Below are positions 6,662 through 26,941 of a stretch of DNA of 41,593 nt, one piece after another. The translations under genes were made by a program, and so were the position numbers. The stretch is from the NCBI GenBank assembly GCA_040005945.1, contig JBDTXY010000001.1, forward strand, positions 1 through 41,593, written 5' to 3'. This DNA is from Acidobacteriota bacterium. Its GTDB lineage: Bacteria; Acidobacteriota; Thermoanaerobaculia; UBA5066; Gp7-AA6. The notes beneath the pieces were generated by a model. It was given only the letters and a program-made list of their open reading frames with translations, searched no databases and had not been told where the DNA came from. Each line of letters opens with the position of its first letter. The first letter of the stretch is position 1.

Positions 6662-6664
6662 GGG

Positions 6665-7795
6665 TCACGCGGGCTTCTTGAGCCCCGCGAGCAGCGTCTT
6701 GAACGATTCCTTGTCGATCGCGCGATCCAGCGCCTCGTTGGGCTCGACGACGTCCTGCTTGACCAACTCCGTCAGGGATTGATCCATCGAGATCATTCCC
6801 TTGGACTTGCCGGTCTGGATCTGATTGTTGATGCCCGCGGTCTTGCCCTCGCGGATCGCGTTGGAGAGCGCGGAAGAGCCCAGCAGGATCTCGTACGCCG
6901 GAACCCGTCCGCCATTCTTCTTGCGCAGCAGCTGCTGCGCGACGACGCCCCGCAGGACCTCCGCGAGGACGATGCGCACCTGTTCCTGCTCGGCGGCCGG
7001 GAACGCGTCGATGATCCGGTCCACGGCCTTGGCCGCGGAGTTGGTGTGGACGGTCGCGAAGACCAGCAGCCCGGTTTCCGCGGCCGTCAACGCCATGCGC
7101 ATCGTCTCCAAGTCGCGCATCTCGCCCACGAGCAGGCAATCCGGGTCCTCGCGAATGGCCGCTTTCACCCCGTCGGCGAAGCTGGGAACGTCCGGGCCGA
7201 TCTCGCGCTGCGTGAAGATGGATTTGTCGTTCTTGTGGATGAACTCGATGGGATCCTCGATCGTCACCACGTGGTGCGCCAGCCGTTTGTTCATCCGATC
7301 CAGAATCGCGGCCAGGGTCGTGGACTTGCCGCTTCCGGTCGGGCCCGTGATGAGGATCATGCCGCGCCGCACGGCGTAGAGCCCGGAGACGGCGGCGGGA
7401 AGGTTCAGGTCTTCGGCGGTGGGAACCTTGGACGGGATCAGACGGAAGACGGCGGCCGAGCCCCGCTCCTGTTGGAGGAGGTTGACCCGGAAGCGCGCCT
7501 GCTCGCCCATCTGGTAGGCGTAGTCCACGTCCCCGGAGTCCTGGAAGCTCTTCCAGGTCTTGGGCGGCGTGATCGGGCCCACCAGGTTGAAGAAGTCCCC
7601 CTCGGTCAAGACGCGATACCGCATCCGCTCGAGCTCGCCGTCGATGCGCACGATCGGAGGCGATCCCACCGAGAGGTGCAGATCGGAGCCCGATCGCTTG
7701 GGCAGGATCGCCAGGAATCGGTCGATCCGATTTCCGGCGGCCGTCACGTGGAGGTCGCCCTCCGCCGGAGGCCCCTTGGGCGCCGGCGCGCTCAC
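6665..7795 (-). CDS. pilT: Type IV pilus retraction ATPase PilT
   Basis: Motifs: SDLHLSVGSPPIVRIDGEL, Walker A GPTGSGKSTT, Asp box EDPIEF, Walker B CLLVGEMRD, His box LVFATVHT, PilT motif AIREGK. The GTG start at 7795 overlaps the upstream stop (GTGA). An alternative GTG lies at 7748. The ORF-track extension to 8719 is read-through of the upstream gene in another frame. Confidence 0.93.
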   Translation of the reverse strand: MSAPAPKGPPAEGDLHVTAAGNRIDRFLAILPKRSGSDLHLSVGSPPIVRIDGELERMRYRVLTEGDFFNLVGPITPPKTWKSFQDSGDVDYAYQMGEQARFRVNLLQQERGSAAVFRLIPSKVPTAEDLNLPAAVSGLYAVRRGMILITGPTGSGKSTTLAAILDRMNKRLAHHVVTIEDPIEFIHKNDKSIFTQREIGPDVPSFADGVKAAIREDPDCLLVGEMRDLETMRMALTAAETGLLVFATVHTNSAAKAVDRIIDAFPAAEQEQVRIVLAEVLRGVVAQQLLRKKNGGRVPAYEILLGSSALSNAIREGKTAGINNQIQTGKSKGMISMDQSLTELVKQDVVEPNEALDRAIDKESFKTLLAGLKKPA

Positions 7796-10269: not shown

Positions 10270-10441
10270 GTGCGATCAACTGAGATCAGTGTAGGGAGTC
10301 GAGCGTTCAGAGTCGAGTCGGGACTCCGGAGCCCGAGATCGCACCTCCGAGATCGTCGACATGGGACCGACAAGCCGCTACACTAGGGTCCATAAACCCG
10401 GCGAATTGGCCTCAGGGGCCGTCGAATTCGAAGATGAACGT

Positions 10442-10459
10442 CTGTTACCCGAAGTAACG
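10442..10459. promoter_or_regulatory. Palindrome CTGTTAC-CCGAA-GTAACG, candidate enhancer-binding-protein site (UAS)
   Basis: Inverted repeat TGTTAC/GTAAC separated by 5 nt, lying 97 nt upstream of the GG of the sigma-54-like element at 10547. An almost identical palindrome sits at the same distance from the second sigma-54-like element (20371-20389). Confidence 0.45.
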
Positions 10460-10546
10460 AAAGCTGGCTCATTTCTTCGAGACCCAAGGGGGCATGGAAT
10501 TGCTAAACGCCTGTGAAACAAGAGCCTTGCGACAAAGTGAGATACA

Positions 10547-10562
10547 CGGCACGGGAATCGCT
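10547..10562 (+). promoter_or_regulatory. Sigma-54 (-24/-12) promoter candidate for the minor-pilin operon
   Basis: CGGCACGGGAATCGCT fits the GG-N10-GC spacing of the TGGCACG-N4-TTGCW consensus. It differs at only one base from the element at 20473-20488. Caveat: the -12 GC is only 17 nt from ATG 10578, leaving almost no leader. Confidence 0.45.
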
Positions 10563-10577
10563 TTACGTCGCTACGTA

Positions 10578-11093
10578 ATGGTCCCAAATGCGTCGGTCGA
10601 TCGAAGCCATGGCTTCACGCTCGTGGAGATTCTGGTGGTAATGGCCATCTTCGCCGCCATGGCGCTGGTGGGCGTTCCGTACATGCTCAAGATCGCGCAG
10701 CGCAACGCGCTCAAGAGCGCCGCGCGGGAGATCTCCGTGACGCTGGCCGCGGCGCGAATGACGGCGGTCAAGCAAAACCAACCCGTGACCGTGGCCATCG
10801 GATCGGTCACTCCCCCCATCCAGTTCCTGACCATCCAGTCCGCGCCGCTGGCGGGGACGCCGACCCCGGTTCCGCAACTGCTGATTCTGCCCCGCAACGC
10901 GGCGCGGTTTCTGGCCACACCAGTCGGGGGCACCGTGATTTTCGGCGGAGACGGCCGGCTCAGCAATCCGCCGTTGACGCCGTCCGTGATCACGGTGGAG
11001 GGTCCCACGAACTCCATCCCCAGAAACTCGATCTCGATCAGCACCGCCGTCAACGGCCGAATCCAGGTGATCACACCGGTGGACTGGAAATGA
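10578..11093 (+). CDS. FimT/GspH-like minor pilin (prepilin-type N-terminus)
   Basis: MVPNASVDRSHG|FTLVEILVVMAIFAAMALVGVPYM, followed by a GspH-like RNALKSAAREISVTLAAARMTAVKQNQPVTV. The ORF-track start at 10494 would give an implausible 40-aa leader. Confidence 0.85.
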   Translation: MVPNASVDRSHGFTLVEILVVMAIFAAMALVGVPYMLKIAQRNALKSAAREISVTLAAARMTAVKQNQPVTVAIGSVTPPIQFLTIQSAPLAGTPTPVPQLLILPRNAARFLATPVGGTVIFGGDGRLSNPPLTPSVITVEGPTNSIPRNSISISTAVNGRIQVITPVDWK

Positions 11094-11695
11094 ACGCGAC
11101 CCGCCTTCGCCGCGAAGCCGGCGTCACCTTAGTCGAGCTGCTGATCGCGAGCGTGCTGCTCGCGTTGATCCTGTTGGCGATCGCGCCGCTCTTCATTGGC
11201 AGCGTCAGATCCAATTACGCGGCCAACGAATACACCAGCATCAACAACCTCGCGCGGGACCGGTTGGAACAGCTCATGAGCATCCCCATCCCCGAGCCGG
11301 ATCCGTTGGTATTTCCCGGCTACCAGCCGCAGCTCGACTTGAACGGGGGACCGGCTGCCGATGGGAACTATCCCAACGATCTTCCGACGCGACTGCCGGA
11401 CCCGTTGACGGAGGTCATCTCGGCCACGTCGGTCCGGAATCCGCTCGTGCGCACGTATACGGTGACGCACTGGACCTCCTCGGAGCCGGTTTGCCTCGCT
11501 CCCGGCTGCACGCCGAATCCCTGGATCCTTCAACAGGTCACTACCGTGGGCAACCCGTACGATTTCAAGAAGATCGACGTGACGGTCAGCTCCGTTAGGC
11601 CGGGAGGCACCGGATCGCTGCTGGGGATCGGCCAGAGGACCGCGCAGGTCTCGGGCTTCCTGCGCAACCCGGACCCCGCGGGGAACTTCCGATGA
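11090..11695 (+). CDS. pilV: PilV-like minor pilin
   Basis: The start overlaps the upstream stop (ATGA). N-terminus MNATRLRREAG|VTLVELLIASVLLALILLAIAPLF has the class III signal shape, with Val instead of Phe at +1 and Glu at +5. Its position is second in the canonical fimT/U-pilV-W-X-Y1 order. Confidence 0.7.
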   Translation: MNATRLRREAGVTLVELLIASVLLALILLAIAPLFIGSVRSNYAANEYTSINNLARDRLEQLMSIPIPEPDPLVFPGYQPQLDLNGGPAADGNYPNDLPTRLPDPLTEVISATSVRNPLVRTYTVTHWTSSEPVCLAPGCTPNPWILQQVTTVGNPYDFKKIDVTVSSVRPGGTGSLLGIGQRTAQVSGFLRNPDPAGNFR

Positions 11696-13161
11696 GCGCC
11701 TGCAGCACAGGGGCTCGCGCCCGGCGTCACCCGGCGGCCGGTTTCACGCTGATCGAGATGATCGTCGTGACGCTCCTTCTGATGATCGCGATGCTGGGCC
11801 TTCTGGCCGTTTTCGACGCGAGCTCGCGCATCAACAAGAGCGAGACCGACGTCGCCGACGCCCAGGGCAACGTCCGCTACGGCGTCTACCAGATGACCAA
11901 AGTCATCCGGATGGCGGGGGCCGGCGGCCTCTTCATCACCCAGGCCGTCATCAATGCCAATGCCAATCCCGCGTGGCCAGGGATCAACGTTTCGGGCTTC
12001 TACAACAACATCACCTCCGGCACCATCGATACGGCGGACGGCGGCGGTTCGACGGTCACCATCCGTCCCGGGACGGACATGATCGAGATCCGAGGCGTCA
12101 TCCTCTCGCCGCTGATCGGGTTCGATCAGTCGTCGGGCTGTGGCGGCGGGGGCTGCACCGGAACCGAGAACGTTCTGGTCAAGGAGATCGTCGGCGATCC
12201 GCTCATCGGTGAGCATCTCAACGACGACTCCACGTCGGGAAGCCCTCAGCGGCCCCAGTTCACGACGGTCGACACCTACACCGCCAGCGTCACCGGGACC
12301 AACAAGATGTACGTCGTGGTCGAGGACGGAAACTCCGACCTGCACACGGGCTGCTCTCCGCCGCCTCCCAGCCTGACGCAGCGATTCGCACAGCCGTTCT
12401 ACAACGTGGGCGCGATCTCGGTGCCGACGACCCTGAGATCTCCGGGTCTGACGTTTGGCCCCGTCGCGTTTGGCGACGCCACGGCCATGCGGTACAACCC
12501 CGAAATGCCTTCCGTCAAGAGCACGCAGCTGCCCGCGGCCATCGGGAAGGTGCGTCGGGCCGGAATCATGGACGACATCATCTTCTTCATCGGGATGCTC
12601 CCGACCTGCGGCGGCACGCCGGGGCCAGGCTGCGACCCGCTGGGCCAGCATCCGTATCTGGCTCAGGGCATCCGGCGCGGGAACCACTTCGAGGTCAGTC
12701 CGCTGGCCGACGACGTCGAGGACCTGCAGATCGCGTACGGGGTCGACACCAACGGAGACTTCGCGGTCACGCGCCTGGACGCAAAGCCGTATACCGATCC
12801 CTTCAACCAGGATCCGAATGTCTCGACGACCCTGGGCGGGGACGAGTGGCAGCCCAATGTTGCAGCCGAGCCGTTGTATGCCGACGTGGCCTTCCAGAGC
12901 CAGAACCCGTTTCCGGGCAGCAACGAACATCCCGGCATCCCCCCGGCCGCGCACTGTCCCCGTCTGCGGGGCGTGATGGTCTCACTTCTGGCCAAGGCGC
13001 ACGACCCGGACCCGAACTACCGCGGGCCGGGCGCCACCGGTTTTCGTCTGATGGACGTGCTCCCGGCCTCGGGCCCCCCGATCACGGCCGTTCCGGGTCG
13101 ATACCGCCGAAGAGTCCAAACGATCAAGATCAACCTTCGCAACTACGAGTTTCAGGGATGA
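11692..13161 (+). CDS. pilW: PilW-like minor pilin
   Basis: ATGA overlap with the upstream gene. ...HPAAG|FTLIEMIVVTLLLMIAMLGLLAVFDASSR. The large (489 aa) size and third position in the operon match PilW. Confidence 0.75.
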   Translation: MSACSTGARARRHPAAGFTLIEMIVVTLLLMIAMLGLLAVFDASSRINKSETDVADAQGNVRYGVYQMTKVIRMAGAGGLFITQAVINANANPAWPGINVSGFYNNITSGTIDTADGGGSTVTIRPGTDMIEIRGVILSPLIGFDQSSGCGGGGCTGTENVLVKEIVGDPLIGEHLNDDSTSGSPQRPQFTTVDTYTASVTGTNKMYVVVEDGNSDLHTGCSPPPPSLTQRFAQPFYNVGAISVPTTLRSPGLTFGPVAFGDATAMRYNPEMPSVKSTQLPAAIGKVRRAGIMDDIIFFIGMLPTCGGTPGPGCDPLGQHPYLAQGIRRGNHFEVSPLADDVEDLQIAYGVDTNGDFAVTRLDAKPYTDPFNQDPNVSTTLGGDEWQPNVAAEPLYADVAFQSQNPFPGSNEHPGIPPAAHCPRLRGVMVSLLAKAHDPDPNYRGPGATGFRLMDVLPASGPPITAVPGRYRRRVQTIKINLRNYEFQG

Positions 13162-13709
13162 CCATGCGCACACGACGCAGCGAACGAGGCGCCGCCCTGG
13201 TCGTCGCCATCCTGGTGTTGGCGATCCTGACCGTCATCGGCATCGCGCTGATGCTGATCACCTCCACGGAATCGCGGATCGCGGCCAATGAATGGTCGGT
13301 CAACCGCGGCTTCTACGCCGCCGACGCCGGGGTGCGCTGGTCTTCGGTCGAGATGAACAACACGCAATCCTTTCTGACGCGAAACGAGTTCAAGAAGGCC
13401 GACAGCACCAGCAATCCCTTCGGGTATGTCCTCTTCAACATGGAAGGACACCAGTTCCGCCAGGGCTCGCTGCTGCCCGGGAGCTTCCTGCAGAATCAAA
13501 ACGACATCGACGTGAAGGTGAGCACCCCCGGGCGCCTGGGACGGCGTCCCTACCGGGGAGGCATCATCAACGAGCAGGGGTCGCGCGCCCAATACCTTTA
13601 CGCTTTTGAGCTGCGCTCCCGAGGCGCAGACGACCGGTTCCTGAAGTATTCCAAGTCACTCGTAGCAGACGTGGAAGTCGGACCGCTCCCGGCCCGCCTC
13701 CCGTTCTGA
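13158..13709 (+). CDS. pilX: PilX-like minor pilin (PilX N-terminal domain)
   Basis: ATG 13158 overlaps the pilW stop (ATGA). [59 protein letters not shown] matches the PilX_N pattern (ERG-A-L..AL..L..L...G......E.R.A.N......A..AA.AG). The ORF-track extension to 12846 is read-through of pilW. Confidence 0.8.
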
Positions 13710-13720
13710 GGAGATTCCCG

Positions 13721-16700
13721 ATGAGACAGCGTCCGGTTACGACTTCAAGAGGCCTCGTAGGTTGGGCGGCGCGCCATCGTGCGGCGGCCACCTTCCTGCT
13801 GCTGTTCATGATGGCCTCACCCGCCACGCCGGATGATCGCCAGCTGCTCCAGGCCAATGCCGGAGCGTCGGCGGACGTTCTCCTGATCCTGGACTCCTCG
13901 AACTCCATGAACTTCGACTTCACCAATTTCTATCGATTGCCCGCGTACATGGACGATTTCGTCTACCCGGAAGGCACGACGGCGGGGGCCGAGGGGTCCA
14001 AGCTTGGCATCGCCAAGAGCGTGCTCCGCGAGGTCATCACGAAGACCACGGGCGTCAATTGGGCGTTCTCCTATTACCGCAATCCCAAACAGACCCTGGG
14101 CGCCGCCAACGCCGACACCGGTCTCCTGGATCCCTCGAAGCTGGGTGAGCCGATCGGGGGCGCCGTCAACAAGAACGACTACCTGGAGAATGGCGGGCTC
14201 GAGTGGTTCTACCTGGCCGAATGCATCGTCAGCTCGGCGGGCAGCAACGGAGGCTGTCTCGGGCTGCCGAGCGCGGTCTTCGACCCGGTGGAGTATCCCG
14301 ACGTGCAGGCCGGCCGGTTTCTGCAGCTCGGCCACAAGGTCATGCGCAACTACACACCCGACCCGCGGTATCCGTATCCCGGTGCGACCCCCGGCACCTG
14401 GCGCGGCTCCTTCGGGCCGCACTCTCAGAAACCCGGCTTCACCAAGAACAATCCCGAGGGACTGGTCGTCTACCGCAACCCGAACAAGCCGGGCTTCGAG
14501 CTCCGAATGACCGCCGTGAATCATCCGTACGGTGACCCGTTTATCTTCGTCAAGGTCGAAGAGTTCGCGGCGCCGGCCGTCCCCACGGTCACTCCGACGA
14601 CGACCCCGACGGTCACGGCGACGCCCACCTCGACCAGCACGCCGACGCTGACGAAGACCCCGAAGACCAAGACTCCGACGCCGACCCCTCCTCCGACCAA
14701 CACGCCGACGATCACTCTGACACCTTCCCTGACGCCGACGAAGACGCCGGTGACACCCACCCTGACGCCGTCGAAAACCTTCACGGCGACCAAGACCTTC
14801 ACGGCGACGCCGATCACCCCGACGAACACGCCGACGAAGACCCTGACGCCCACCAACACCTTCACGCCGACGAAGACCTTCACGGGCACGCCCATCACCC
14901 CGACGAACACGCCGACGAATACCCTGACGCCCACGCCCACCGTCCCGACGAACACGCCGACGAAGACCTTCACGGCGACGCCGATCACGCCGACGAAGAC
15001 GCCGTCGAACACCAAGACGCCGACACCGATCACCCCGACGGACACGCCGACGAAGACCTTTACGGCGACGCCGGTGACGCCCACGAGCACGAAGACCCCC
15101 GTGCCGACGAATACCCAGACGGCGACGCCCCTCCCGGCGACGAACACGCCGACCAAGACGCCGACGGTCGTGACGTCCACGCCGACGAAGACTCCGACGA
15201 TCTACATTCCGCCGACGACTGGTGGAGGCGCGATGCCCCCGCAAAGCCTGCTGCCGGTGATCGCAAACTGGCTTCCGCCGGCCGTTCGAGGTCTTCTGGC
15301 CATGGCTCCGCCGCCGCCGCCGATGCAGACGCCCGGCCCCTGCGCCGGCATCCTCATCACGCCGAAGGCCGACTGCGCGCCGTGTCCGTGGGAAGCTCTG
15401 GATTCGCCTCCGGGCACCAATCCCGGATATCCCCACTACCTCTGCGCGTACCAGGACGCCAACGGAGACAAGGCGATCAACCCGACCGAGAAGGCTCCTT
15501 CGAACCTCATTCCGCTGGACCCGAACCTGCGCGGATTCGACGATCCGCAGGCGGACCCCGATACGACGTTCGTCTCCACGAGCAAGATTGCGTTCATCAA
15601 GTATCGCCGGGGCGACCAGTTCAGCTTTCCGCCCAAGTACACGGCGGGCGACGACCTCACCGGCAATCCCCCGTGGGGATCGTGCATCGACGGCACCAAC
15701 AAGAAGGCCTGCCCGGTGTTTCCGGACTACGACGCGGACGGCAAGGCAGACACCCCGTGCGTTCCCGTCACCGCCTGCGATCGCCACAACCAGGGCATGT
15801 ACGCCGCCCTGTACGACGCCGGTTCCGCCCCGCCGACGACCGGCCCGTATCCTGGGGTGGGAGTGGCGGGGTTGAACTACTCGCGGCCGTATCAGCAGTA
15901 TCCGCTGGACGCTTTCGCGGCCAAGTCCTGCCCGCTGGATATCCCGAGCTGCGACCCGACGACGTGGGACTGCGGCGGCTTCGCGCACTTCAACGGGTTC
16001 ACGGCGAGAGACGGCACGCCCTATTCCGGCGTCGCGCCAGATGACTTGTCGGTGAACTCCCCCAACAACGGCGGCTCGCCCTACGCAACCGGCACCGAAC
16101 CTCCGGCTCCTGAGCGGTGGCCGGTCGTTCCGTTCAAGCGCGATTGGGATCCGTACAGGGCCACCGACTATCCGGCCGGAGGTCCTTCCGCCGACGAATC
16201 CATCAAGAAACTGCTGCGGTTCGTGTCGTCCATCGTGACCTACGATTCCGCCGCGCCGGACGTCACCACGGCCTACCGCCTCGCAGAGGACGCCAAGGAA
16301 GTCGTCGCGACAGCCTCGCAAACCCCCGTGGCTGGAGCGCTCGAGGACGCCTACAACTACTTCAAGGACAGCGTCTTCGCGCCGTCCACGGTCCCGGATC
16401 CGGCGGTGGACTGTCGAAACTTCATCATCGTCTACGTCACCGACGGCCTCGACGAATGCAACTCCAACCCGTGTACGGGAGGGCGGACCGGCCTCGGGGT
16501 CGCGGGCGACCTGAAAGACCTGCTGCTGCCCGAGAGCGCGCCGGGAGCTCGCGCGGCCGCCAACGCGGTCGACCCGACCATTCCCATCCGCGGAATTCCC
16601 GTCAACGTCGTGGCGATGGGAGACCCGACCGTCTTCACGAATCTGAGCTGCATCGCCGACAACAGCGGCGGTACCTTGTACGCCGCGACCGACCGCAGCA

Positions 16701-19393
16701 CGCTGGAATCGGCTCTCGAGTCCATCCTGGACTTCAAGCGGACGGCCACCTCTTTCGCGGCTCCCGCAGTGCCCGCCTTCTCGGGCGGCTTGAGCGACAC
16801 GGCGCTGATCGGCGCGGCCGTTCCGAGTCACTTGAACGTGGCGGATGGCTCGCTCTCCAAATGGTCGATCTGGAGCGGCTCGCTGAAGGCCCTGAAGCTC
16901 AATAACGGCGTCATCCCAGTCGTGACGGCGGCCTCGCCGACGGCGGCTCCCACCGTAACACCGGGCGGGCCGGTCCCGACGGTGACCCCCACGCCGGTGC
17001 CCGGCACCGGCAGCTATCCCGACGAGTCGGATCCCGACAATGGCACCGCCTCGGTGCGCAAGCCGGTTTGGAACGCAGGCCGGGTCCTGGGCTATACGAG
17101 CCCGTTAACCGATCTCGGAAACAACCTGGCTCCGCTCGATCCGCCGCCGCCCGGCAACGGCCCAATCCTGATCTGGCCCGGCCGCAAGATGATCTTTGCG
17201 AGCGGTTCGCTCGGCGGCAAGATCCCAATGGATCGGCAGGACTTGCTGCCCAATACCGGCACTTGCCAGAAGAGTGGAGGGACCGGCTGTTTCGACCTTC
17301 TGATGGGCTACATGGGATTGGACACCACGAAGACGATCGACACGACCCTGGCTGTCAACACCGTTCAATTCCTGCGGGGCGGCCGCACCAACTACGGGGT
17401 CCGAGACGAGATCCTCAACGACGTGAAACCCTCGACGATCGGGACGATCGGGCCCACGACCACCGAAAGAAAGTACTCCTATTACTATCAGGACGATCCA
17501 CCGATCCCCGGCAACCCGCCGCAGGATCCGACCGATTCGGCCAACACGCCTCCGGGGTATGCCCACAAGCTGGGCGACATTTTTCACTCCGAGGCGTTGG
17601 TCGTCGAGCCTCCGCGATATTTCCAATATCTTTCGTTGAATCTGGCGCCCAACGGCCCGGGCAGCGAGTATCTGAGCTTTGCGAACTTGCACGCTCAGCG
17701 CCGCAAGGTCGTTTACGTGGGATCCAATGACGGATTCCTCCACGCGTTCGACGCCGGCATGTTCAATCGCGACCCGGGCTTCGTTGGGATCCACGATCTG
17801 GGGACCGGGCGTGAAATCTTCGCGTATGCGCCGCGCGCCGTGAACGTCAAGTTCCCGGCCCTGCTCGATTTCACTCCGCTCCCGCAGTATTTCGTGGATG
17901 GATCCATGGCGGCGGCGGACGTGTTCGTCGATCCGGCCATCGCCGCCGCCGGCTCGCCGACCCCGGCGGATCGCGTATGGCGGACCGTGCTGGTCGGAGG
18001 CCTACGCCAGGGCGGTTCGAGATACTACGCTCTGGACGTCACGCAGCCCGACGAGATCGATCCGACGGGCGTCTTGCTGGACCCGAAGGACAATTCTCCC
18101 CACTGCTTGAACCTGACCGGCATCGGAACCAGTTGTAAAGCCGGAACGAGCGTCCCGCAGCGTCCGTATCCGTCGATTCTCTGGGAAATGGGCGACGTCG
18201 TCGATCCCGCGGCCGACCCCATCGTGGGAGCGCCCTGCTCCGACAGCTGTCAACTCTCTCCCCCTCCGGCCATGGGCGAAACCTGGTCGCGGCCGGTCGT
18301 CGGACGGATCCGGACCTTCACGGGACAGAACCCCGGACCGACATTCGAAGACCACTACGTCGCGATCTTTGGCGGAGGCTTCGACGCGAACTTTAACCCC
18401 GGCGACAACGTCGCCGCCCTGGTCGGCGCGGGCACGGCGGTCAACGGGCGAGCCTTCTACATTGTGGACGTGGAGACCGGCAAGATCCTCTTCAAGACCA
18501 CTGAGGGAATCGAAGGCGACGGGGTCACGATGACCAACTTCGCTCCCATGCCCGCACACCCCGCGGTGGCCGATTACGACGATGACGGCTACCTCGACGT
18601 GGCCTACATCGGCGACATGAACGGAAATATGTACCGCATCGATCTGACGCCGAATCCGGATCCGGCGGTGCTCCGCGGACAGATGGGCTCCGGCGAGGCC
18701 CACGGGTACGTTCCGTTCCACCTGTTCGACACCTGCAAGACCGTCACGATCGTCCCTTGCGATCAGCCGATCTTCTTCGAGCCCGGCATCGTCTTCCTGG
18801 GAGGCACGCTCAGTCCCCCGGCGCTGGGCATCTCGTTTGGCACTGGCAACCGCGCGGAGCTCGCGGCCCCCAACCCGGTGGGAGAGCCCAACGCCTTCTA
18901 CTACGTGACCGATACGGGGCAGGTCGATTTCACGTTCGACCGCAGCTCCTTGCGCGACATCACGCCCGTGACCGGAGTCGGGCCCTGTCCCATTCCCTAC
19001 GATCCGCTCACGTGTGGAGCGGGGAACACGGGCTTCGTGCTGGATTTCGCGTCGGGCAACGAGAAAGCCACGTCCACCCCGTTCTCGACCCAGGGTTACC
19101 TTTCGATCATCACGTTCACGCCGGATTCGGTCAGCCCCTGCGCCACGGAGGGCAACTCGTATCGCTACCGTTTCTTCTTCCTGACGGGGCAACCCGGGTA
19201 TACGACCGATCCCAGCGCCATCTATAACGGCTACGCGCAGACTCTGGGAGAGGGAATGGCCAGCGCGTCCCAATCCGTGGCCCCGGACGGAGATATAATC
19301 GACACGCTGCTGTTCTCGGAGGGTAATGTCCGTCAGGACATCACGCCGGGAGCCGTCAGGACGATCGAGCAAAACTGGAAGGAACAGCAATGA
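13721..19393 (+). CDS. pilY1: Giant PilY1-like pilus tip adhesin (vWA motifs, Thr/Pro linker, Cys-rich insert, C-terminal PilY1 propeller)
   Basis: GAGGAG lies 7 nt upstream of the ATG. N-terminal signal-like segment [15 protein letters not shown]. vWA MIDAS DSSNS (13892-13906) with the later vWA strand [12 protein letters not shown] (~16433). C-terminal third carries PilY1 hallmarks: [67 protein letters not shown], and a Ca-binding-type loop [25 protein letters not shown]. Confidence 0.9.
14573..15220 (+). repeat. Thr/Pro-rich low-complexity linker encoded by degenerate tandem DNA repeats (inside pilY1-like gene 1)
   Basis: About 215 residues are almost entirely T, P, K, N, F, e.g. [48 protein letters not shown]... 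The DNA unit GACGAAGACCTTCACGG(C/G)(G/C)ACGCC(G/C)ATCAC(C/G)CCGACGAA recurs at roughly 90-bp intervals (near 14867, 14958, 15048). Confidence 0.85.
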
Positions 19394-20283
19394 AATCACT
19401 CCGACAGGGCCTCGCCGCCGCGTTTCTCACCGGAACGACGGCGTTGGCCCTGGCCGGAGATGTCGTGGTCCTCAAGGGCGGAGCAGTCATCGAGCTCAAG
19501 CAGCCTTGGGTCCGCCGCGGCAACACCGCCTACCTGACTCGCGCCGACGGGACTCTGCTCTCCGTCCCCGTGGGAGAGATTGACCGGGACGCTACCGCCG
19601 CCGCGGCGGTCAAGCCGGCGTCGCAGCCTGCGCCGGCCGAGCCGTCCCAGCCCTCGACTCCGGCCGAGGCCGTTCGCACGGTTCGCGAAGGGCCCAAGGC
19701 GCGCGTCAAGATCACCGACGCAGACGTGTCCCATCCGTTGGATCTGTCGGAAACGCTCCCGCAGGGAAAGAAAGAGCAGCCCGGGGGACCCGCACGCGTG
19801 GAGATCGCGCAATATACGCAAGACCTTCAAGGCCAGACCCTCTACGTCAAGGGCCAGCTCCGCAATCCCACGCAGTACCTGGCCGACGATGTCAAGATGA
19901 CCGTTACCGCGATCGACGAGAAGGGCCAGGCGATCACCGCGGAGCCCGCTTCGCTGTCCAATGGCCAGCTGGAGAGCGCGGCAACGGTGGAATTCTCCGT
20001 ACCCCTCGCGGTGGGCGACCGCACCGTGGCTTCTCTGCGTTTCGCTCCCACCTGGAAAGGACCGCGCCCAACACCTGCCCCCACGCCAAGAGCGAACGCC
20101 GCCGCCGCTGCAAGGGCAGCAGCGGCCGCCGAGGCTCCCCAGGTCCGGCCGACTCCATACGGTCGAGGCAACATTTACCCGGCTCCCGTGGCCAATGCTC
20201 CGATGTCGCCGCAGGCGGACGGGTCCGGCTACATCCCTGGCGCGGCCAGTACCGAGAACCAGCCTAAGCCCCCCCAGCACTAG
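19390..20283 (+). CDS. Secreted protein of unknown function, translationally coupled to pilY1-like gene 1
   Basis: ATGA overlap at 19390-19393. Signal peptide [23 protein letters not shown]. Small N-terminal domain, a Pro/Ala-rich linker ([24 protein letters not shown]), a beta-rich C-terminal domain ([33 protein letters not shown]...) and a Pro/Ala tail. No family recognised with confidence. Confidence 0.7.
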
Positions 20284-20370
20284 GCCCCCCCGCGGAAATC
20301 CCGCGCCTCCGCAATCTCGAATACCTGCCCGTTTTGTCAGGTCTGTGTACTGGCACGCAGGCCAGTTTCA

Positions 20371-20389
20371 CTGTTACTGGAAGTAACAG
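20371..20389. promoter_or_regulatory. Palindrome CTGTTAC-TGGAA-GTAACAG, candidate enhancer-binding-protein site (UAS)
   Basis: Perfect 7-bp inverted repeat with a 5-nt spacer, 94 nt upstream of the GG of the sigma-54-like element at 20473. It has the same half-sites as 10442-10459. Confidence 0.5.
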
Positions 20390-20472
20390 GATGGCAAGTC
20401 GACAGGTTCGGTCCTCGAGGTTGTATTGATGCAACTGATTCATTTCCAGCTATTTGAAGCGATCTTCGGTGG

Positions 20473-20488
20473 CGGCACGGAAATCGCT
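20473..20488 (+). promoter_or_regulatory. Sigma-54 (-24/-12) promoter candidate for pilY1-like gene 2
   Basis: CGGCACGGAAATCGCT has correct GG-N10-GC spacing. It is followed ~20 nt later by GGAGG and ATG 20518, and matches 10547-10562 at 15 of 16 positions. Confidence 0.6.
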
Positions 20489-20517
20489 CCTTCCGGACTA
20501 GAAACCCGGAGGCCAAG

Positions 20518-23500
20518 ATGCGGATTCAACCCAGCGTTCGCGGAGTCAAACACGGATCGCGATTTCGGGGAGCCGTCTCCTCGCTCTTGCTCCTGCTCAC
20601 GGCCGTGCCCGGACGTCCCGACGACCGGCAGCTCCTTCAGGCGAATCAGGGCGCCAACACCAACGTCCTCCTGATCCTGGACTCCTCGCATTCGATGAAC
20701 GACGAGTTCGCGGCCAAGTACCGGTTGCCGGCGTACATGGACGACTTCCTGTATCCGCAGGGAACCTCCGAAGGGACCAGCGGCTCCAAGCTGGGGGTGG
20801 CCAAGAGCGTGCTTCGCCAGACCCTGTCGATCACGAGCGGCGTCAACTGGGCGTTCGCCTACTACCGGAATCCGAACCAGACCTTCGGCGCGGCGGACAC
20901 GTTCGTCGGGACGCCTCCCGACTACGTCGACCAGGGCCTCGCGATCGGCGGCGCCAAGGTCGCGGGCGACTACCTGGAAAACGGTGGGCTCGAGTGGATG
21001 TATTTCGCGGACTCGCTGCTCGACGGCTCGCCGGTCAGCTCCGCGTTTGCGTCCAACGACTATCCCGACATCCAGAGCGGCCGCTTCCTGCAAATGGGCC
21101 ACAAGGTCATGCGCAACTACGGAAGCGAGCAGCCCGTCCTCGAGATCGCCGACGTGCGTCCGCCGTACTCGGCTCCCACGGGCCCGCCGTCGGGGGAACC
21201 GACTCCGGGAACCTGGAGGGGCGCCTTCGGACCGCACGGGGAGGGGCAGGTCATCTATCGGAGCCCGTCCAAGCCGGGCTCCGAGCTGCGGATCAAGGTC
21301 TCTTCGGGCAAGTATTCCGACGCCTCCCTCATCCTGGATGTCGAGGAGTGGGCGCCGCCTCCGCCAACCTTCACTCCCAACAAGACGAAGTCGCCCACGC
21401 AGACCATCACCCCTGGCGGCCCGCCGCCGCCTACCGCCACCAAGAAACCGACGAAGACCGCCACTCCCATTCCTCCGACGCCGACACCCACGCCCAAGGG
21501 TTCCGAAGGCCAGTTGCCCGTCGGAAGCCGGCTGCCGGTGATCGCCTCGTGGATGGCGCCGGCGGTGCGCGGGATGTTGGCCATGGTTCCCCCGCCTCCC
21601 CAGCCGGCGCCGCCGTGTCCCGGCATCCCGGCAGGCTATCCGCCGCCGCAGTGCGCGCCTTGTCCGTACGACCTCGCCGGACGTTCCTGCTCCGTCGTCG
21701 ATGCCAACGCAAACGGCGCCATCGATCCGGGAGAGTTCGCTCCGGCAAACTTCATCCCCCTGCCCTCCGCGATGCGGGGATTCGACGACCCGCAGGCCGA
21801 TCCGACCCAGAAGGGGCAATACCTGCGGACGGTCTCGATCAAGTACACGCGCGGGGACCTCTACAACCTGCCCCCACAGTACCTCCCCGACGACCTGAAG
21901 AACGGAAACCCGCCCTGGGGCTCGCGGGCGGGAGACGGAGACGCCGACGGAAAAACCGACGGGTTGGCGGACCGCCACAACCAGGGGATGTTCGCGGCCA
22001 TCTACGACAAGGATCGCTCCCGCGGCGAGCAGCAGTATCCCAGCGACGCGTTCGCCGAGCCGTCCTGCCCTCTGAACGATTACTTCGCCGGCACGCAATG
22101 CGACGTGTACGTGAAGGACTGCGGCGGACTGGCTCGATACCTCTCCGCAAGACCGTGCGATCCGGCCAATCCCGAGGTCTCGTGCGCGGGCGGCGGATAC
22201 AACGCGTACCCGGACGCCCTCACGAAGCCTCCGTCCTCGGACGACTGGGTGGTGGTTCCCTTCAAGCGCGACTACATCGCGACGGACACCGACAACGCTC
22301 CGGTCATCAAGAGACTCTTGCGCTTCGCCTCTTCCATCGTGTCCTACGACTCAGCCGCGCCGACGGCCAATGCCTACCAGCTCAAGGAGGACGCGAAAAA
22401 CGTGGTCGTGACCGCTCCGGGAACGCCCATCGGGGGCGCGCTGCACGACGCCTACAACTACTTCGTGAAGAGCGTTTTCCCGGGCGACGTGGTTCGGGAC
22501 GACAAGGTCGACTGCCGCAAATACATCGTCGTGTTCTTGACGGACGGGCTGGATGAGTGCGGCTCGCAGGATCTCCTGTGCTCGGGCGGTCCGACGGGAG
22601 GCGGTCCCGGGGGTGATCTGGGTGAGGTGCTGCTGCCCGAGAGCGTGCCGGGTGCGCGCGCGGCCGCCCACGCGATCGATCCGATGGTGCCCCTCAAAGG
22701 AATCCCGGTCTACATGATCGGATTGGGCACGGACCTGGATCTGGACAGCTTTCAGTGCATCGCCGACAAGAGCGGGGGAAAGGTCCTGGGCGCCACCAGC
22801 GGCGATGAGCTGCGGGCGGATCTGGCCAGCATCTTGAACTTCCAGCGCGGCGCCAACGTGTTCGCGTCACCGAGTCTGCCGGCCTTCTCCTCGGCGCAGG
22901 GCAACGACTCGGCGCAGATCGGCGCGGTCATCCCCAGTCATCAAAATCTCGACGGGTCCCTCTCGAGCTGGTCGGTCTGGAACGGATCCCTGAAGAGCTA
23001 CAAACTGGATCCCCAGGGATTGATCCCGGTCGTCACCGCGGCTCCCGCGACGCCCACCCCCACGCCCACGGGCGTCGTTCCCACGGCCACTCCGGGGGTG
23101 CCGACACCCACGCCGACTCCGATTCCGGGCACGACCAGCTATCCCAACGAGACCCTTCCGGATGGGCCCGTCGCCGTGCAACGAATGCCCGTCTGGAACG
23201 CGGCGCGGCTCCTGGGGTACACGGACCCGTCGACCAATCTCGACGGCGGGAAAGCGCCCAGCGGCGCCACACCGGCGGCCAAGAACGTCTGGCCCGGCCG
23301 CAAGATGGTGTTCGCGCGGGCCGCGGCGGGGGTGCCCCTCCTGCGCGCCGATTTCATGCCGGATACCCCGGGCGTCTGCGACGGCGCCTGCTTCAACGAC
23401 CTGATGACCGACATGGGCCTGACGCCGGGCAATCCGGACGACACGACGCTGGCCATTCGCACGGTGCAGTTTCTGCGCGGCGGAACCAAGGCCGGCGGCA

Positions 23501-25461
23501 CCCGGGACGAGATCCTGAATCTCGTCAAGCCGGGAACGATCGGCAACATCGGCCCCGGTCCCGACGACGCGCAGATGTACTCGTACTACTACCAGGACGA
23601 CGCTCCCGCTCCGGGCGATCCGCCCCAAACGCGCACCGACGGCAGCAATTCGCCTCCGGGATACGGGCACAAACTGGGCGACATCTTTCATTCCGAGCCC
23701 CTGCTCCTGCAGCCGCCCCGCTACTTCCAGTACCTGTCGGCCAACGTGGGCGCCGCGGTCGGAAAGCCCTACCTGGATTTTGCCAACCGGCAGGCGCTGC
23801 GCCGCCGCGTCCTCTTTGCGGGCGCCAACGACGGATTCCTGCATGCGTTCGATGCGGGGGTCTGGGACCGCGATCCGGCCCTGGCGAAACTGCACGATCT
23901 GGGAACCGGCCGCGAGATCTTCGCCTACGCTCCGCTGGCGGTGATGAAGGACAAGTTCCCGAGCCTCCTGACGTTCCCGCCGGTGCCGCAGTATTTCGTG
24001 GACGGCTCCATGGCCGCGGCGGACGTCCTGGTGGATCCCATCCACAGCGGAACCCCGACGCCGGCAGACCGCCTCTGGCGCACCGTCCTCGTCGGAGGAT
24101 TGCGGCAAGGCGGCTCCAGCTACTACGCGCTGGACGTGACCCAACCCGATGATCTCAAGGCCGACGGGTCGATGAAGGGAAACAAAGACGCCTCTCCGGC
24201 CTGCTTGAACGGGGCCGGGGCCAGTTGCAAGGTCGGGGGGACCGCGCGCAGATACCCCGAGATCCTCTGGGAGCTGAACGACGCCGGGACCGTGGCCTGC
24301 TCGGATTCCTGCGGCAGCGGCATCCGCAATCCGGCGATGGGCGAGACGTGGTCGCGGCCGGTGATCGGCCGCATCCGGGTCATCACGGGGGCCGGGCCCG
24401 TCTACGAGGACCGCTACGTCGCGATCTTCGGCGGCGGTTTCGATCCGGCCTTTTCTCCGGGCGAGGACGTGGACGCCAAGCTCAACGTGGGCACGCCCGT
24501 CAACGGGCGAACGGTCTACATCGTGGACGTGGAAACCGGCAAGATCCTCTACAAGGCGACGCAGGGAGACACGGCCGACGGGGCCGGGCTCACCGCAACG
24601 GTCAAGTTTGCGCCGGTGCCGGCCCCCGTCACGGCCGCCGACTACGACGACGACGGCTATCTGGACGTCGTCTATGTCGGCGACGTCAACGGGCACATGT
24701 GGCGTCTCGACGTGACTCCCGACGCCTCGACGACCCCCAAACGGGGCGAGCTGGTGGCGGGGCGCCTGCAGGGCTACAAGCCGTTCCTGCTGTTCAATGG
24801 CTGCGGCGTGACCACGGGCGCATGCACGCGAAAGCTGCCGATCTTCTTCGAGCCCGGCATCGTTTATCTGGGCGGCGCGGGCGGAGCGCCTCCGCCGATG
24901 GCGGTGGCGTTTGGAACCGGCGACCGGTCGGACTTGACCGCGGTCAAGCCGCTGGGCGCGAACATGGACGGCTTCTACTATGTGGTCGAGACCGGGCAGA
25001 CGACGCAGACGATGCTCCAGGAGAATCTGCGCGATCTGACTCCGGGCGTGGGACCCGGGCCGTGTCCGGATCCCTCGGACCTGTCGACTTGCGTGAACGC
25101 GATCAACGGCTTCGTCCTGAGCTTCGCGTCGGCCAACGAGAAGTCCACCTCCACCGTCTACTCGACGCTGGGATATCTGAGCCTGGTGACGTTTACGCCG
25201 GATTCTCCGACGCCCTGTGGAATCAGCGGAAGCTCCTACCGGTACCGGTTCTTCTACTTGACCGGCCAACCCGGATACCCGGGCGGAGCCTACGGCGGCT
25301 TCCAGGAGACCTTGGGCTCGGGAGTCGCGAGCGCGTCCCAGACCACCAATCCCGCGGGCGGGATCGTGGACACGGTGTTCTTCTCTCAAGGCGCCACGCG
25401 GCAGGACCTGACTCCGGGGACCGTGCGCACGATGGAACAGAACTGGAAAGAGCAAGAGTAA
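20518..25461 (+). CDS. pilY1: Second PilY1-like pilus tip adhesin (paralog of 13721-19393, shorter linker)
   Basis: Collinear with gene 1: [41 protein letters not shown], vWA strand [105 protein letters not shown]-terminal EQNWKEQE. Confidence 0.9.
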   Translation: MRIQPSVRGVKHGSRFRGAVSSLLLLLTAVPGRPDDRQLLQANQGANTNVLLILDSSHSMNDEFAAKYRLPAYMDDFLYPQGTSEGTSGSKLGVAKSVLRQTLSITSGVNWAFAYYRNPNQTFGAADTFVGTPPDYVDQGLAIGGAKVAGDYLENGGLEWMYFADSLLDGSPVSSAFASNDYPDIQSGRFLQMGHKVMRNYGSEQPVLEIADVRPPYSAPTGPPSGEPTPGTWRGAFGPHGEGQVIYRSPSKPGSELRIKVSSGKYSDASLILDVEEWAPPPPTFTPNKTKSPTQTITPGGPPPPTATKKPTKTATPIPPTPTPTPKGSEGQLPVGSRLPVIASWMAPAVRGMLAMVPPPPQPAPPCPGIPAGYPPPQCAPCPYDLAGRSCSVVDANANGAIDPGEFAPANFIPLPSAMRGFDDPQADPTQKGQYLRTVSIKYTRGDLYNLPPQYLPDDLKNGNPPWGSRAGDGDADGKTDGLADRHNQGMFAAIYDKDRSRGEQQYPSDAFAEPSCPLNDYFAGTQCDVYVKDCGGLARYLSARPCDPANPEVSCAGGGYNAYPDALTKPPSSDDWVVVPFKRDYIATDTDNAPVIKRLLRFASSIVSYDSAAPTANAYQLKEDAKNVVVTAPGTPIGGALHDAYNYFVKSVFPGDVVRDDKVDCRKYIVVFLTDGLDECGSQDLLCSGGPTGGGPGGDLGEVLLPESVPGARAAAHAIDPMVPLKGIPVYMIGLGTDLDLDSFQCIADKSGGKVLGATSGDELRADLASILNFQRGANVFASPSLPAFSSAQGNDSAQIGAVIPSHQNLDGSLSSWSVWNGSLKSYKLDPQGLIPVVTAAPATPTPTPTGVVPTATPGVPTPTPTPIPGTTSYPNETLPDGPVAVQRMPVWNAARLLGYTDPSTNLDGGKAPSGATPAAKNVWPGRKMVFARAAAGVPLLRADFMPDTPGVCDGACFNDLMTDMGLTPGNPDDTTLAIRTVQFLRGGTKAGGTRDEILNLVKPGTIGNIGPGPDDAQMYSYYYQDDAPAPGDPPQTRTDGSNSPPGYGHKLGDIFHSEPLLLQPPRYFQYLSANVGAAVGKPYLDFANRQALRRRVLFAGANDGFLHAFDAGVWDRDPALAKLHDLGTGREIFAYAPLAVMKDKFPSLLTFPPVPQYFVDGSMAAADVLVDPIHSGTPTPADRLWRTVLVGGLRQGGSSYYALDVTQPDDLKADGSMKGNKDASPACLNGAGASCKVGGTARRYPEILWELNDAGTVACSDSCGSGIRNPAMGETWSRPVIGRIRVITGAGPVYEDRYVAIFGGGFDPAFSPGEDVDAKLNVGTPVNGRTVYIVDVETGKILYKATQGDTADGAGLTATVKFAPVPAPVTAADYDDDGYLDVVYVGDVNGHMWRLDVTPDASTTPKRGELVAGRLQGYKPFLLFNGCGVTTGACTRKLPIFFEPGIVYLGGAGGAPPPMAVAFGTGDRSDLTAVKPLGANMDGFYYVVETGQTTQTMLQENLRDLTPGVGPGPCPDPSDLSTCVNAINGFVLSFASANEKSTSTVYSTLGYLSLVTFTPDSPTPCGISGSSYRYRFFYLTGQPGYPGGAYGGFQETLGSGVASASQTTNPAGGIVDTVFFSQGATRQDLTPGTVRTMEQNWKEQE

Positions 25462-25469
25462 GACCCTCC

Positions 25470-25523
25470 GGCTCGATCCGCGGCCGCGCCGTCTTTGGGA
25501 GGGCGTGGGCCGCGGATTGAGCC
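25470..25523 (+). terminator. GC-rich stem-loop after pilY1-like gene 2 (possible terminator; no U-tract)
   Basis: GGCTCGATCCGCGGCC (25470-25485) pairs with GGCCGCGGATTGAGCC (25508-25523) over 16 bp with one G-U. An inner CGCC/GGCG extension adds to the stem. It starts 9 nt after the stop codon. Confidence 0.4.
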
Positions 25524-25582
25524 GGTCCCGCTTCGATTCCCGCCTTCCGCATCTGACCCGAAGCCGCTACTCTTGAGGCGAC

Positions 25583-26941
25583 ATGCCCAGAATCCTGATC
25601 GTCGAAGACAAGGACTCCCTGCGCACGATGCTCCAGGAAATGTTGAAGGCCGAAGGCCTGAGCGTGATGTGCGCCAGCACCGGATCGCAAGCCGTCGAGC
25701 AGCTGCGCAGGGGCGAGCTCTACGACCTGGTCCTGACCGACTGGCGGCTGCCCGGCGCCGATGGGCTCGCCGTGCTGGATGCCGCGATCGCGGCGGACGC
25801 GACACTGCCGGTGCTCGTGATGACGGCCTTCGGCTCGATCGAAACGGCCGTCGAGGCGATGAAGCACGGCGCCGAGGACTTCATCACCAAGCCGGTCGAT
25901 CCGGATCTGCTGCGCCTGCTGGTCAAACGCGCGATCGAACGGCGCACCCGCTCGCGGCAGTCCCTGCTCTTCGCCGAGGCGCAGTCGCGCTCGCTGCCGC
26001 CGATCGTGGGGGAGTCGGCCGCCATTCGGGCCGTGCGCGCCGAGACCGAGCGCGTCGCGGCCACGGATGCCACGGTGCTGCTCGAGGGCGAGAGCGGAAC
26101 CGGCAAGGAGCTCTTCGCGCGGGCGATTCACGCGCTGTCGGCGCGCCGGGACAATGCCTTCATCGCGATCAACTGCGCGGCGATTCCGGAGACGCTGCTG
26201 GAGAGCGAGCTCTTCGGCCACGAACGGGGGTCCTTCACGGGAGCCGCCGGCCGGCGCCTGGGAAAATTCGAGCTGGGCGACGCGGGAACCGTGTTTCTCG
26301 ACGAGATCGGCGAGCTCTCGCCCGCCACGCAGGGCAAGCTCCTGCGCGTCCTGCAGGAGCGGTCCTTTCATCGGGTGGGCGGCACGACCGCGATCCAAGT
26401 CGATGTCCGGATCATCGCCGCGTCGAATCGGCCGCTCGAGAAGCTGGTGGCTCAGGGAGGGTTCCGCGAGGACCTCTATTACCGCGTCCACGTCTTTCCG
26501 ATTCGGATCCCGGCGCTGCGCGAGCGGCCCGAGGACATCGACCCGCTCATCGACTGGTACCTGACGCATCTTCCCCAGGAGCTGGGAAAACGCGTCGTGC
26601 GCTTGAACCCCGCGGCGCGGGAACGCCTGCGCGCCTACGATTGGCCGGGCAACGTTCGCGAGCTCCGCAACTGCCTCGAGCGGGCCATCATCCTCTGCGA
26701 CGAAGACGGCATCAGCGAAAGGCACCTGCGCCTGGGCCCCGAGCCCGCGTCCGTGGAGGCCGTGCGAGAGGAGACGCTCGAGCAGGCCAGGGATCGCGCC
26801 GGCCTCGCGGCCGAGCGGGTGTGGCTGCTCCGGGCGCTGGAGAAAGCCCGCGGCGATCGGACCGCCGCGGCGCAGGCGGCCGGAATCTCGGCTCGACGTT
26901 TCGAGGCCAAGCTCCGGGAGCACGGTCTCGAAGAGCTCTGA
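25583..26941 (+). CDS. Sigma-54-dependent response regulator (REC + AAA+ + Fis-type HTH; NtrC/PilR-like)
   Basis: REC domain: [11 protein letters not shown]...[17 protein letters not shown]+ domain: Walker [15 protein letters not shown]-type loop [28 protein letters not shown]-terminal [29 protein letters not shown]. Confidence 0.95.

Follow-up and report, generated by a model that had tools for sequence, protein, structure and literature searches.

The tip operon of an uncultured Acidobacteriota bacterium carries two pilY1 genes

The stretch of DNA analyzed here (the window, 41,593 nucleotides) spans one whole contig of 41.6 kb (JBDTXY010000001.1) from a metagenome-assembled genome (MAG; 87% complete, 524 contigs, 5.7% estimated contamination). 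It includes the type IVa pilus tip/priming operon of a bacterium from the Thermoanaerobaculia (Acidobacteriota), in which genes for four minor pilins, fimU, pilV, pilW, and pilX, are followed by pilY1-A, by a gene for a secreted protein of 297 amino acids, and by a second PilY1-like gene, pilY1-B (Table 1). Identification of the pilins with Pfam shows that the cluster has a single minor-pilin set for the two pilY1 genes. Of these, pilY1-A lies directly behind pilX, and pilY1-B, with a copy of the operon's promoter in front of it, lies 6.8 kb downstream within the cluster. The open reading frames (ORFs) for the 1890-, 297-, and 1647-residue proteins were found exactly where an initial annotation of this DNA had placed them, and are uninterrupted, with zero internal stop codons. 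As set out below, the two genes probably encode alternative proteins for the pilus tip and its priming, which use one minor-pilin set in common, and the second gene carries a duplicate of the operon's control module.

Table 1 Features of the pilus tip locus and its surroundings, in window coordinates.
Feature	Position	Strand	Remarks
Prepilin peptidase gene	3031-3822		Window neighbor of the pilus cluster
Two adjacent PilT-type ATPase genes	6665-10269	-	
Palindrome 1, GTTACCCGAAGTAAC	10444-10458	.	Presumed binding site for an enhancer-binding protein that controls the minor-pilin operon
Sigma-54-type promoter 1, CGGCACGGGAATCGCT	10547-10562	+	GG-N10-GC; same element and spacing in relatives
fimU/GspH-like minor pilin	10578-11093	+	Pfam N_methyl, GspH
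pilV-like minor pilin	11090-11695	+	Pfam N_methyl; syntenic in all relatives
pilW-like minor pilin	11692-13161	+	Pfam PilW, N_methyl
pilX-like minor pilin (PilK position)	13158-13709	+	Pfam PilX_N; expected dock for the PilY1 C-terminal strand
pilY1-A, 1890 amino acids	13721-19393	+	Canonical slot behind pilX, as in all 17 related loci
Thr/Pro-rich linker of pilY1-A	14573-15220	+	Degenerate 81-90-bp tandem repeats
297-residue secreted protein	19390-20283	+	ATGA overlap with pilY1-A; conserved after pilY1 across the order
Palindrome 2, GTTACTGGAAGTAAC	20373-20387	.	Perfect CTGTTAC-N5-GTAACAG
Sigma-54-type promoter 2, CGGCACGGAAATCGCT	20473-20488	+	Followed by GGAGG, then ATG at 20518
pilY1-B, 1647 amino acids	20518-25461	+	Lineage-specific extra copy
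GC-rich hairpin	25468-25525	+	Directly past the pilY1-B stop; terminator-like, no U-tract
NtrC/PilR-type sigma-54 activator	25583-26941	+	Pfam Response_reg, Sigma54_activat, HTH_8

Both proteins are intact members of the PilY1 family

The Pfam profile for the PilY1 beta-propeller (PF05567) matches pilY1-A with 77.2 bits and pilY1-B with 59.7 bits, against a cut-off of 28.1, and the C-terminal domain of PilY1 from Pseudomonas aeruginosa (PDB 3HX6) is matched with E = 1e-13 in a single-sequence search and 4.5e-32 in a profile search. Orthologs carry the NCBI name 'PilC/PilY family type IV pilus protein'. The EF-hand-like calcium loop of this family (Dx[DN]xDGxxD) reads DYDDDGYLD in both paralogs and aligns to DNNSDGVAD of 3HX6, with calcium binding predicted. 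The most conserved short block lies at the C terminus, where IEQNWKEQQ is invariant in 16 orthologs and in pilY1-A, and is represented by MEQNWKEQE in pilY1-B. Inspected by eye, both N termini have a basic N-region and then a hydrophobic stretch, and lack a prepilin motif. By propeller, calcium loop, and C-terminal block, pilY1-A and pilY1-B are members of the PilY1 family, with all of its diagnostic motifs kept in both. They are, judging from profile scores, not equivalogs of Neisseria PilC: the NCBIfam model T4_PilC_Neiss (NF040838) gives 27.3 bits for pilY1-A and 13.7 bits for pilY1-B against a cut-off of 350, with the match limited to the calcium-loop region.

The paralogs are collinear and 58% identical in a global MAFFT alignment, while BLASTP aligns 1417 residues with 52% identity and the N-terminal 323 residues with 50% identity (E = 0). 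All seven sequence blocks that the initial annotation had listed as shared are present in both translations. That annotation had also named observations that would speak against its proposal, among them a pseudogene among the copies and C-terminal regions that are not PilY1 propellers. Neither copy is a pseudogene, and both C termini are PilY1 propellers by the matches to PF05567 and 3HX6.

The second copy is specific to this lineage

For comparison, we assembled the loci of 16 related genomes and one metagenome contig that carries the closest homolog of pilY1-B, giving 17 loci, and searched 43 other genomes of the genus in whole for propeller domains, with a match in 36 of them. The gene order is the same in 17 of 17 loci: pilT genes, fimU-pilV-pilW-pilX-pilY1, a protein of ~300 residues, a sigma-54 regulator, an ORF of 532 residues, and a tetratricopeptide repeat (TPR) protein, with a single pilY1 in each. 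One pilY1 locus per genome was likewise found in the matched genus genomes, G049 excepted, and where several propeller matches fall inside one locus they are frameshifted fragments of a single gene. The tandem pair was found in this genome only among the 44 genomes of the genus. Therefore, the single-copy synteny of the 17 loci and the genus genomes identifies pilY1-B as a gene added in this lineage only, between those for the small protein and the regulator. The conserved regulator-proximal motif CCGAAGCCGCTA(A)C is still present in the 3' flank of pilY1-B, ahead of the regulator, which places the insertion within the old intergenic region. The closest protein to pilY1-B among 5.8 billion is 58% identical and is encoded in the canonical slot.

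A tandem of this kind could also arise in assembly, if two strain variants of one pilY1 locus had been joined, and the fragmentation of the MAG and its estimated contamination would be in keeping with such an event. However, a strain allele would have pilX upstream, as in all 17 relatives, whereas the DNA ahead of pilY1-B is a unique intergenic stretch of 234 bp that contains a complete promoter module, and the DNA behind it carries the orthologous regulator-proximal motif. The two copies have only ~60-66% DNA identity and no long repeats in common on which an assembler could go astray, and their codon usage is native. An assembly artefact is thus highly improbable.

Two further observations come from the comparison genomes. 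In G049, a second propeller match with 43% identity (C187:4309-6198) lies on a contig other than that of the canonical pilY1. In the long-read MAG records L013, L014, L016, L017, and L020, pilY1 and its neighbors are split into many frames; the same genes are intact in other assemblies, and the broken frames are most likely assembly indel errors rather than pseudogenes.

pilY1-B is preceded by a duplicate of the operon's control module

The regulatory module of the tip operon consists of a palindrome, GTTAC-N5-GTAAC, a spacer of ~90 nt, and a sigma-54 promoter, GG-N10-GC. The palindrome followed ~103 nt on by CGGCAYGRGAATCGCT is conserved ahead of fimU in most relatives, with the palindrome itself present at this position in 13 of the 16 related loci. 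This 3.2-Mb genome contains the composite module exactly twice, at 10444-10561 (fimU) and 20373-20487 (pilY1-B). Among the other 43 genomes of the genus it occurs once in 26 and twice in none, and reversed-pattern controls gave zero matches. Where the positions can be compared, the site in the other genomes is ~7 kb upstream of the propeller match on the same contig. The module is 116-119 nt long in those genomes, and here measures 118 nt ahead of fimU and 115 nt ahead of pilY1-B. Of the 16 positions of promoter 2, 15 match promoter 1, and the geometry is the same; palindrome 2 is a perfect 7+7 repeat, palindrome 1 is imperfect, and the spacers are unrelated in sequence. By its motifs and its distribution, the pilY1-B module is a duplicate of a control module that elsewhere serves the tip operon only. 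The separate promoter for the second gene that the initial annotation described is therefore present, but as a copy of the fimU module and not as one of an independent kind, which points to co-regulation.

The promoter module and ribosome-binding site of pilY1-B are intact, and the gene's stop codon is followed by a hairpin with a folding energy of -54.5 kcal/mol (z = -5.4 compared with shuffled sequences). Because of this strong hairpin, pilY1-B appears to be a one-gene transcription unit. The sigma-54 activator encoded next, which has receiver, AAA+, and HTH_8 domains, is syntenic and 81-86% identical in relatives, and its adjacency and conservation make it the obvious candidate to bind both palindromes. 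With the same type of module at both units, co-regulation by one activator is favored over separate control, although the two units might still be tuned differently to some extent, since their palindromes are not equally perfect and their spacers differ in sequence.

Alternatively, the two tips could be regulated independently, with pilY1-B made under conditions other than those for pilY1-A, as with PilY1.1 and PilY1.3 of Myxococcus xanthus, where PilY1 paralogs are expressed differentially through an NtrC-like regulator. pilY1-B is a transcription unit of its own, with a separate promoter and a terminator-like hairpin, and the perfect palindrome 2, imperfect palindrome 1, and unrelated spacers could confer different affinities or involve different co-factors. 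However, the two modules are of one kind, which elsewhere is single-copy and specific to this operon, they share half-sites and geometry along with nearly all promoter positions, and just one cognate-looking activator gene adjoins them. Independent regulation therefore seems unlikely.

Another motif, (C)CGAAGCCGCTAACCT or similar (window 25540-25582), is found 15-25 nt upstream of the regulator start in most relatives among L005-L019, and may be the regulator gene's own promoter or a leader element.

The two copies are old and have long been under constraint

Each paralog is as similar to orthologs from other species (up to 61-65% identity) as to its partner copy. Nucleotide identity between pilY1-A and pilY1-B is 58-66% in each domain. 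The initial annotation had called for a per-domain comparison of nonsynonymous (dN) and synonymous (dS) substitution, and this gives dN from 0.31 in the propeller, the lowest value, to 0.48 in the Cys-rich insert, the highest, well under dS (~0.8-1.3) in every domain, with the values to be read as rough because dS is near saturation. This degree of divergence throughout the genes indicates that both copies have long been constrained without gene conversion. A recent in-situ duplication or gene conversion is ruled out by the nucleotide identity of the domains and by the lack of any long identical tract.

The divergence data also bear on whether one of the copies, pilY1-B or pilY1-A, is redundant or silent, heading for decay and adding no function. 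A second pilY1 is needed nowhere else in the genus, the linker of pilY1-B is the shortest, its version of the otherwise invariant C-terminal motif has two changes, and pilY1-A sits on the longest branch of the trees. Against these points, frames of 1647 and 1890 codons have stayed open despite near-saturated dS, with dN well under dS in each domain, the diagnostic motifs are intact in both proteins, and pilY1-B has kept its promoter module and ribosome-binding site. A redundant, silent, or decaying copy is improbable.

In N-terminal, middle, and full-length trees, pilY1-B tends to group with L008/L011-L013 (support 80-94), pilY1-A stands on a longer branch with no resolved partner, and the paralogs are not recovered as sisters. 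The approximately unbiased (AU) test rejected sisterhood of pilY1-A and pilY1-B for the propeller with distant outgroups (p = 0.002); with the full-length alignment restricted to the genus, sisterhood was not rejected (p = 0.26). The flanking genes put the genome in a loose group with L005/L008/L009/L016/L019, and therefore duplication and transfer scenarios both fit. A clear horizontal origin was considered and not established, as the tree, AU, and flanking-gene results are compatible with either scenario. Codon usage and the GC content of third codon positions (GC3) in both copies resemble those of neighboring genes, with no compositional sign of transfer, and a search of the flanks of pilY1-B for remnants of fimU, pilX, or the small-protein gene found none beyond the promoter motifs. 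From these sequence comparisons, we conclude that the duplication or capture is about as old as species-level splits in the genus. The second copy derives either from an old duplication within the lineage, perhaps of the whole operon with later loss of the second minor-pilin set, or from capture of an ortholog that came from a different species of the genus.

In another family of the order, locus L023 (G039:C4:108001-128000, ~3400-19600) contains two pilX-like matches and two propeller matches in tandem on one strand. Behind them come the small protein, the sigma-54 regulator, the 532-residue ORF, and the TPR gene known from the other loci, and the arrangement resembles a duplicated pilX-pilY1 module. 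The tandem modules in L023 make duplication of a whole module and subsequent loss of minor pilins a plausible route to the locus described here, and this route would explain the copied promoter.

Domain architecture and size of the paralogs

The initial annotation had described strong divergence in the central insert and in linker length. The Cys-rich insert is indeed the most diverged domain, and the chief length difference lies in the Thr/Pro linker, with ~215 residues in pilY1-A and ~50 in pilY1-B, but divergence is otherwise spread fairly evenly (33-73% identity per 60-column bin), with no single hypervariable head. Tandem Repeats Finder reports rows within 14758-15091 of the pilY1-A linker with a period of 81 or 90, 3.1-3.6 copies, and 81% matches. 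The large size of the two proteins, which had appeared unusual, is real but is a trait of the whole genus, with open frames for pilY1 in relatives of 1914-2308 residues; pilY1-B is shorter than all of the intact full-length ortholog frames seen among relatives. Past the linker, both paralogs and all aligned orthologs have a conserved hydrophobic or amphipathic segment (15251-15325 in pilY1-A, 21532-21603 in pilY1-B), which is modeled as a short helix with low to medium confidence.

Both paralogs contain a DxSxS...T...D metal-site motif, made up of DSSxSM, the threonine of TP[VI][AG]GAL, and TDG. An AlphaFold model of residues 1-1040 of PilY1-B, calculated from a 27-sequence alignment (mean predicted local distance difference test score, pLDDT, of 60), has confident alpha/beta segments at residues 48-120 and 594-773, ~470 residues apart, and between them a beta-rich subdomain, the Thr/Pro linker, and the Cys-rich region. 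The best PDB matches found for this model with Foldseek are vWA domains, at E values of at least 0.065. A vWA-like domain that is split by a large insert is thus likely, but not proven.

The small secreted protein and neighboring genes

The gene for the 297-residue protein is translationally coupled to pilY1-A through the ATGA overlap. Its orthologs are 53-62% identical in all relatives, and the protein is also found in other families of the order. An alignment of the protein with its orthologs (A3) shows invariant blocks and a conserved Pro-rich tail, and AlphaFold predicts a small beta N-terminal domain and a confident Ig-like beta-sandwich at residues 135-225. Family searches gave no match above threshold, with FxLYD below it, and fold searches gave only generic matches. 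The protein is possibly an accessory of PilY1.

Gene starts were revised in two minor pilins. The start of fimU was moved from 10494 to 10578, because the longer ORF would enclose sigma-54 promoter 1; the ATG at 10578 is in frame, and the N-methylation motif then occupies residues 9-31. This ATG, which is the most likely start, is only ~16 nt past the -12 element, so that the first gene of the operon would have a very short leader. The start of pilX was revised to 13158, where it overlaps the stop of pilW. Among the PilT-type ATPases, the upstream one (825 residues) has an N-terminal HEAT-repeat domain of ~470 residues and is 68-78% identical to intact copies in relatives. The long ORF called for the downstream ATPase overlaps the upstream one, so that a later start is probable; its GC3 is only 0.69.

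A model for alternative pilus tips and its relation to known systems

As the initial annotation proposed, alternative tips are the natural reading of two intact PilY1-family genes behind a single minor-pilin set; its observations on the locus are confirmed, and its interpretation is partly supported. The last ~6-10 residues of PilC/PilY1 proteins license assembly of the tip complex through beta-strand addition to PilK/PilX (PMC13533445), and C-terminal strand addition to PilX/PilK is also predicted for myxobacteria (PMC13190605). Since the cluster contains a single pilX, the simplest mechanism is for both proteins to dock on the same complex, one or the other per pilus. In the model that we consider probable, pilY1-B came with, or later gained, the duplicate of the operon's control module, and the adjacent sigma-54 activator would turn on both units jointly. 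The two PilY1 proteins, which presumably dock in the same way, would then be rivals for the one FimU-PilVWX set, and each pilus would be primed and capped by PilY1-A or PilY1-B. The cell would carry two kinds of tip, with the largest differences in the Cys-rich insert and the length of the linker, and the tips may differ in what they bind, as the initial annotation suggested. NtrC-type control of PilY1 paralogs has a precedent in HsfBA of M. xanthus (PMC9109919).

Several points weigh against this model or parts of it. The docking strand of pilY1-B departs at two of nine positions from the otherwise invariant motif, and therefore its docking may be weaker or altered. That the regulator binds the palindromes is an assumption based on its neighboring position and on conservation, the dN/dS values are rough where dS is near saturation, and the source genome is a fragmented and incomplete MAG. 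The vWA assignment is weak, given the mean pLDDT and Foldseek E values of the model, and Pfam and PDB profile searches found no vWA sequence match.

Multiple PilY1/PilC paralogs are known from Neisseria and Kingella (PilC1/2), from M. xanthus (PilY1.1-1.3), and from Xylella. In Neisseria and Kingella kingae, PilC1 and PilC2 are two full-length paralogs that serve one type IV pilus machine with one minor-pilin set, and the pilC genes of Neisseria are phase-variable. The locus described here is similar in having two paralogs with their own transcription units for one minor-pilin set, and in the C-terminal propeller and putative docking strand of the proteins. Unlike the unlinked Neisseria genes, however, these genes are in tandem, ~52-58% identical, and equipped with duplicated enhancer/sigma-54 modules, and their proteins are 600-850 residues longer than Neisseria PilC. 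P. aeruginosa has a single PilY1 of ~1160 residues with a vWA-like N-terminal domain that contains a DxSxS motif, and its gene is followed by pilY2 and pilE in an operon under AlgR/FimS. The fimU-pilVWXY1(Y2)E operon of P. aeruginosa has the same order up to pilY1, and its PilY1 has a homologous propeller and calcium loop (3HX6). In contrast to that operon, the locus here has no pilE past pilY1, and instead has the conserved non-pilin protein of 297 residues, a second pilY1, and sigma-54 control.

The PilY1.1, PilY1.2, and PilY1.3 proteins of M. xanthus resemble the proteins here in being several paralogs with a conserved C-terminal and a divergent N-terminal part (PMC13190605). They are thought to tailor the tip, with the NtrC-like HsfA controlling which of them is made (PMC13190605, PMC9109919). 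In M. xanthus, every PilY1 is encoded in a separate cluster together with a minor-pilin set of its own, whereas here two PilY1 genes share one set. The N-terminal architectures also differ, with DUF4114 and other domains in M. xanthus and, as modeled, a split vWA-like domain, Cys-rich insert, and Thr/Pro linker here.

PilY1/PilC proteins set the adhesion target of type IV pili and whether the pilus assembles, and paralogs are a known route to their diversification. PilY1 genes in tandem or in several copies have been described before, as has their control by NtrC-type regulators, and the locus does not represent a new kind of biology. It does provide a clean natural case, from an uncultured soil and sediment lineage of the Thermoanaerobaculia, in which an operon that is otherwise strictly single-copy gained a second tip gene along with a copy of the operon's dedicated enhancer/sigma-54 promoter, and the comparison of 44 genomes defines a regulatory module that is conserved and highly specific, with GTTAC-N5-GTAAC and the promoter at a constant spacing. 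A more specific proposal, which we offer tentatively and consider rather unlikely, is that the tip operon was duplicated in tandem and pared down to its promoter and pilY1, with L023 representing an intermediate stage. One enhancer-binding protein would then fire two units whose products compete for the single PilX dock, and each cell would carry pili of both tip types in a ratio set by promoter strength. If true, such a stripped operon would amount to a hard-wired division of labor among pili, and not a switch.

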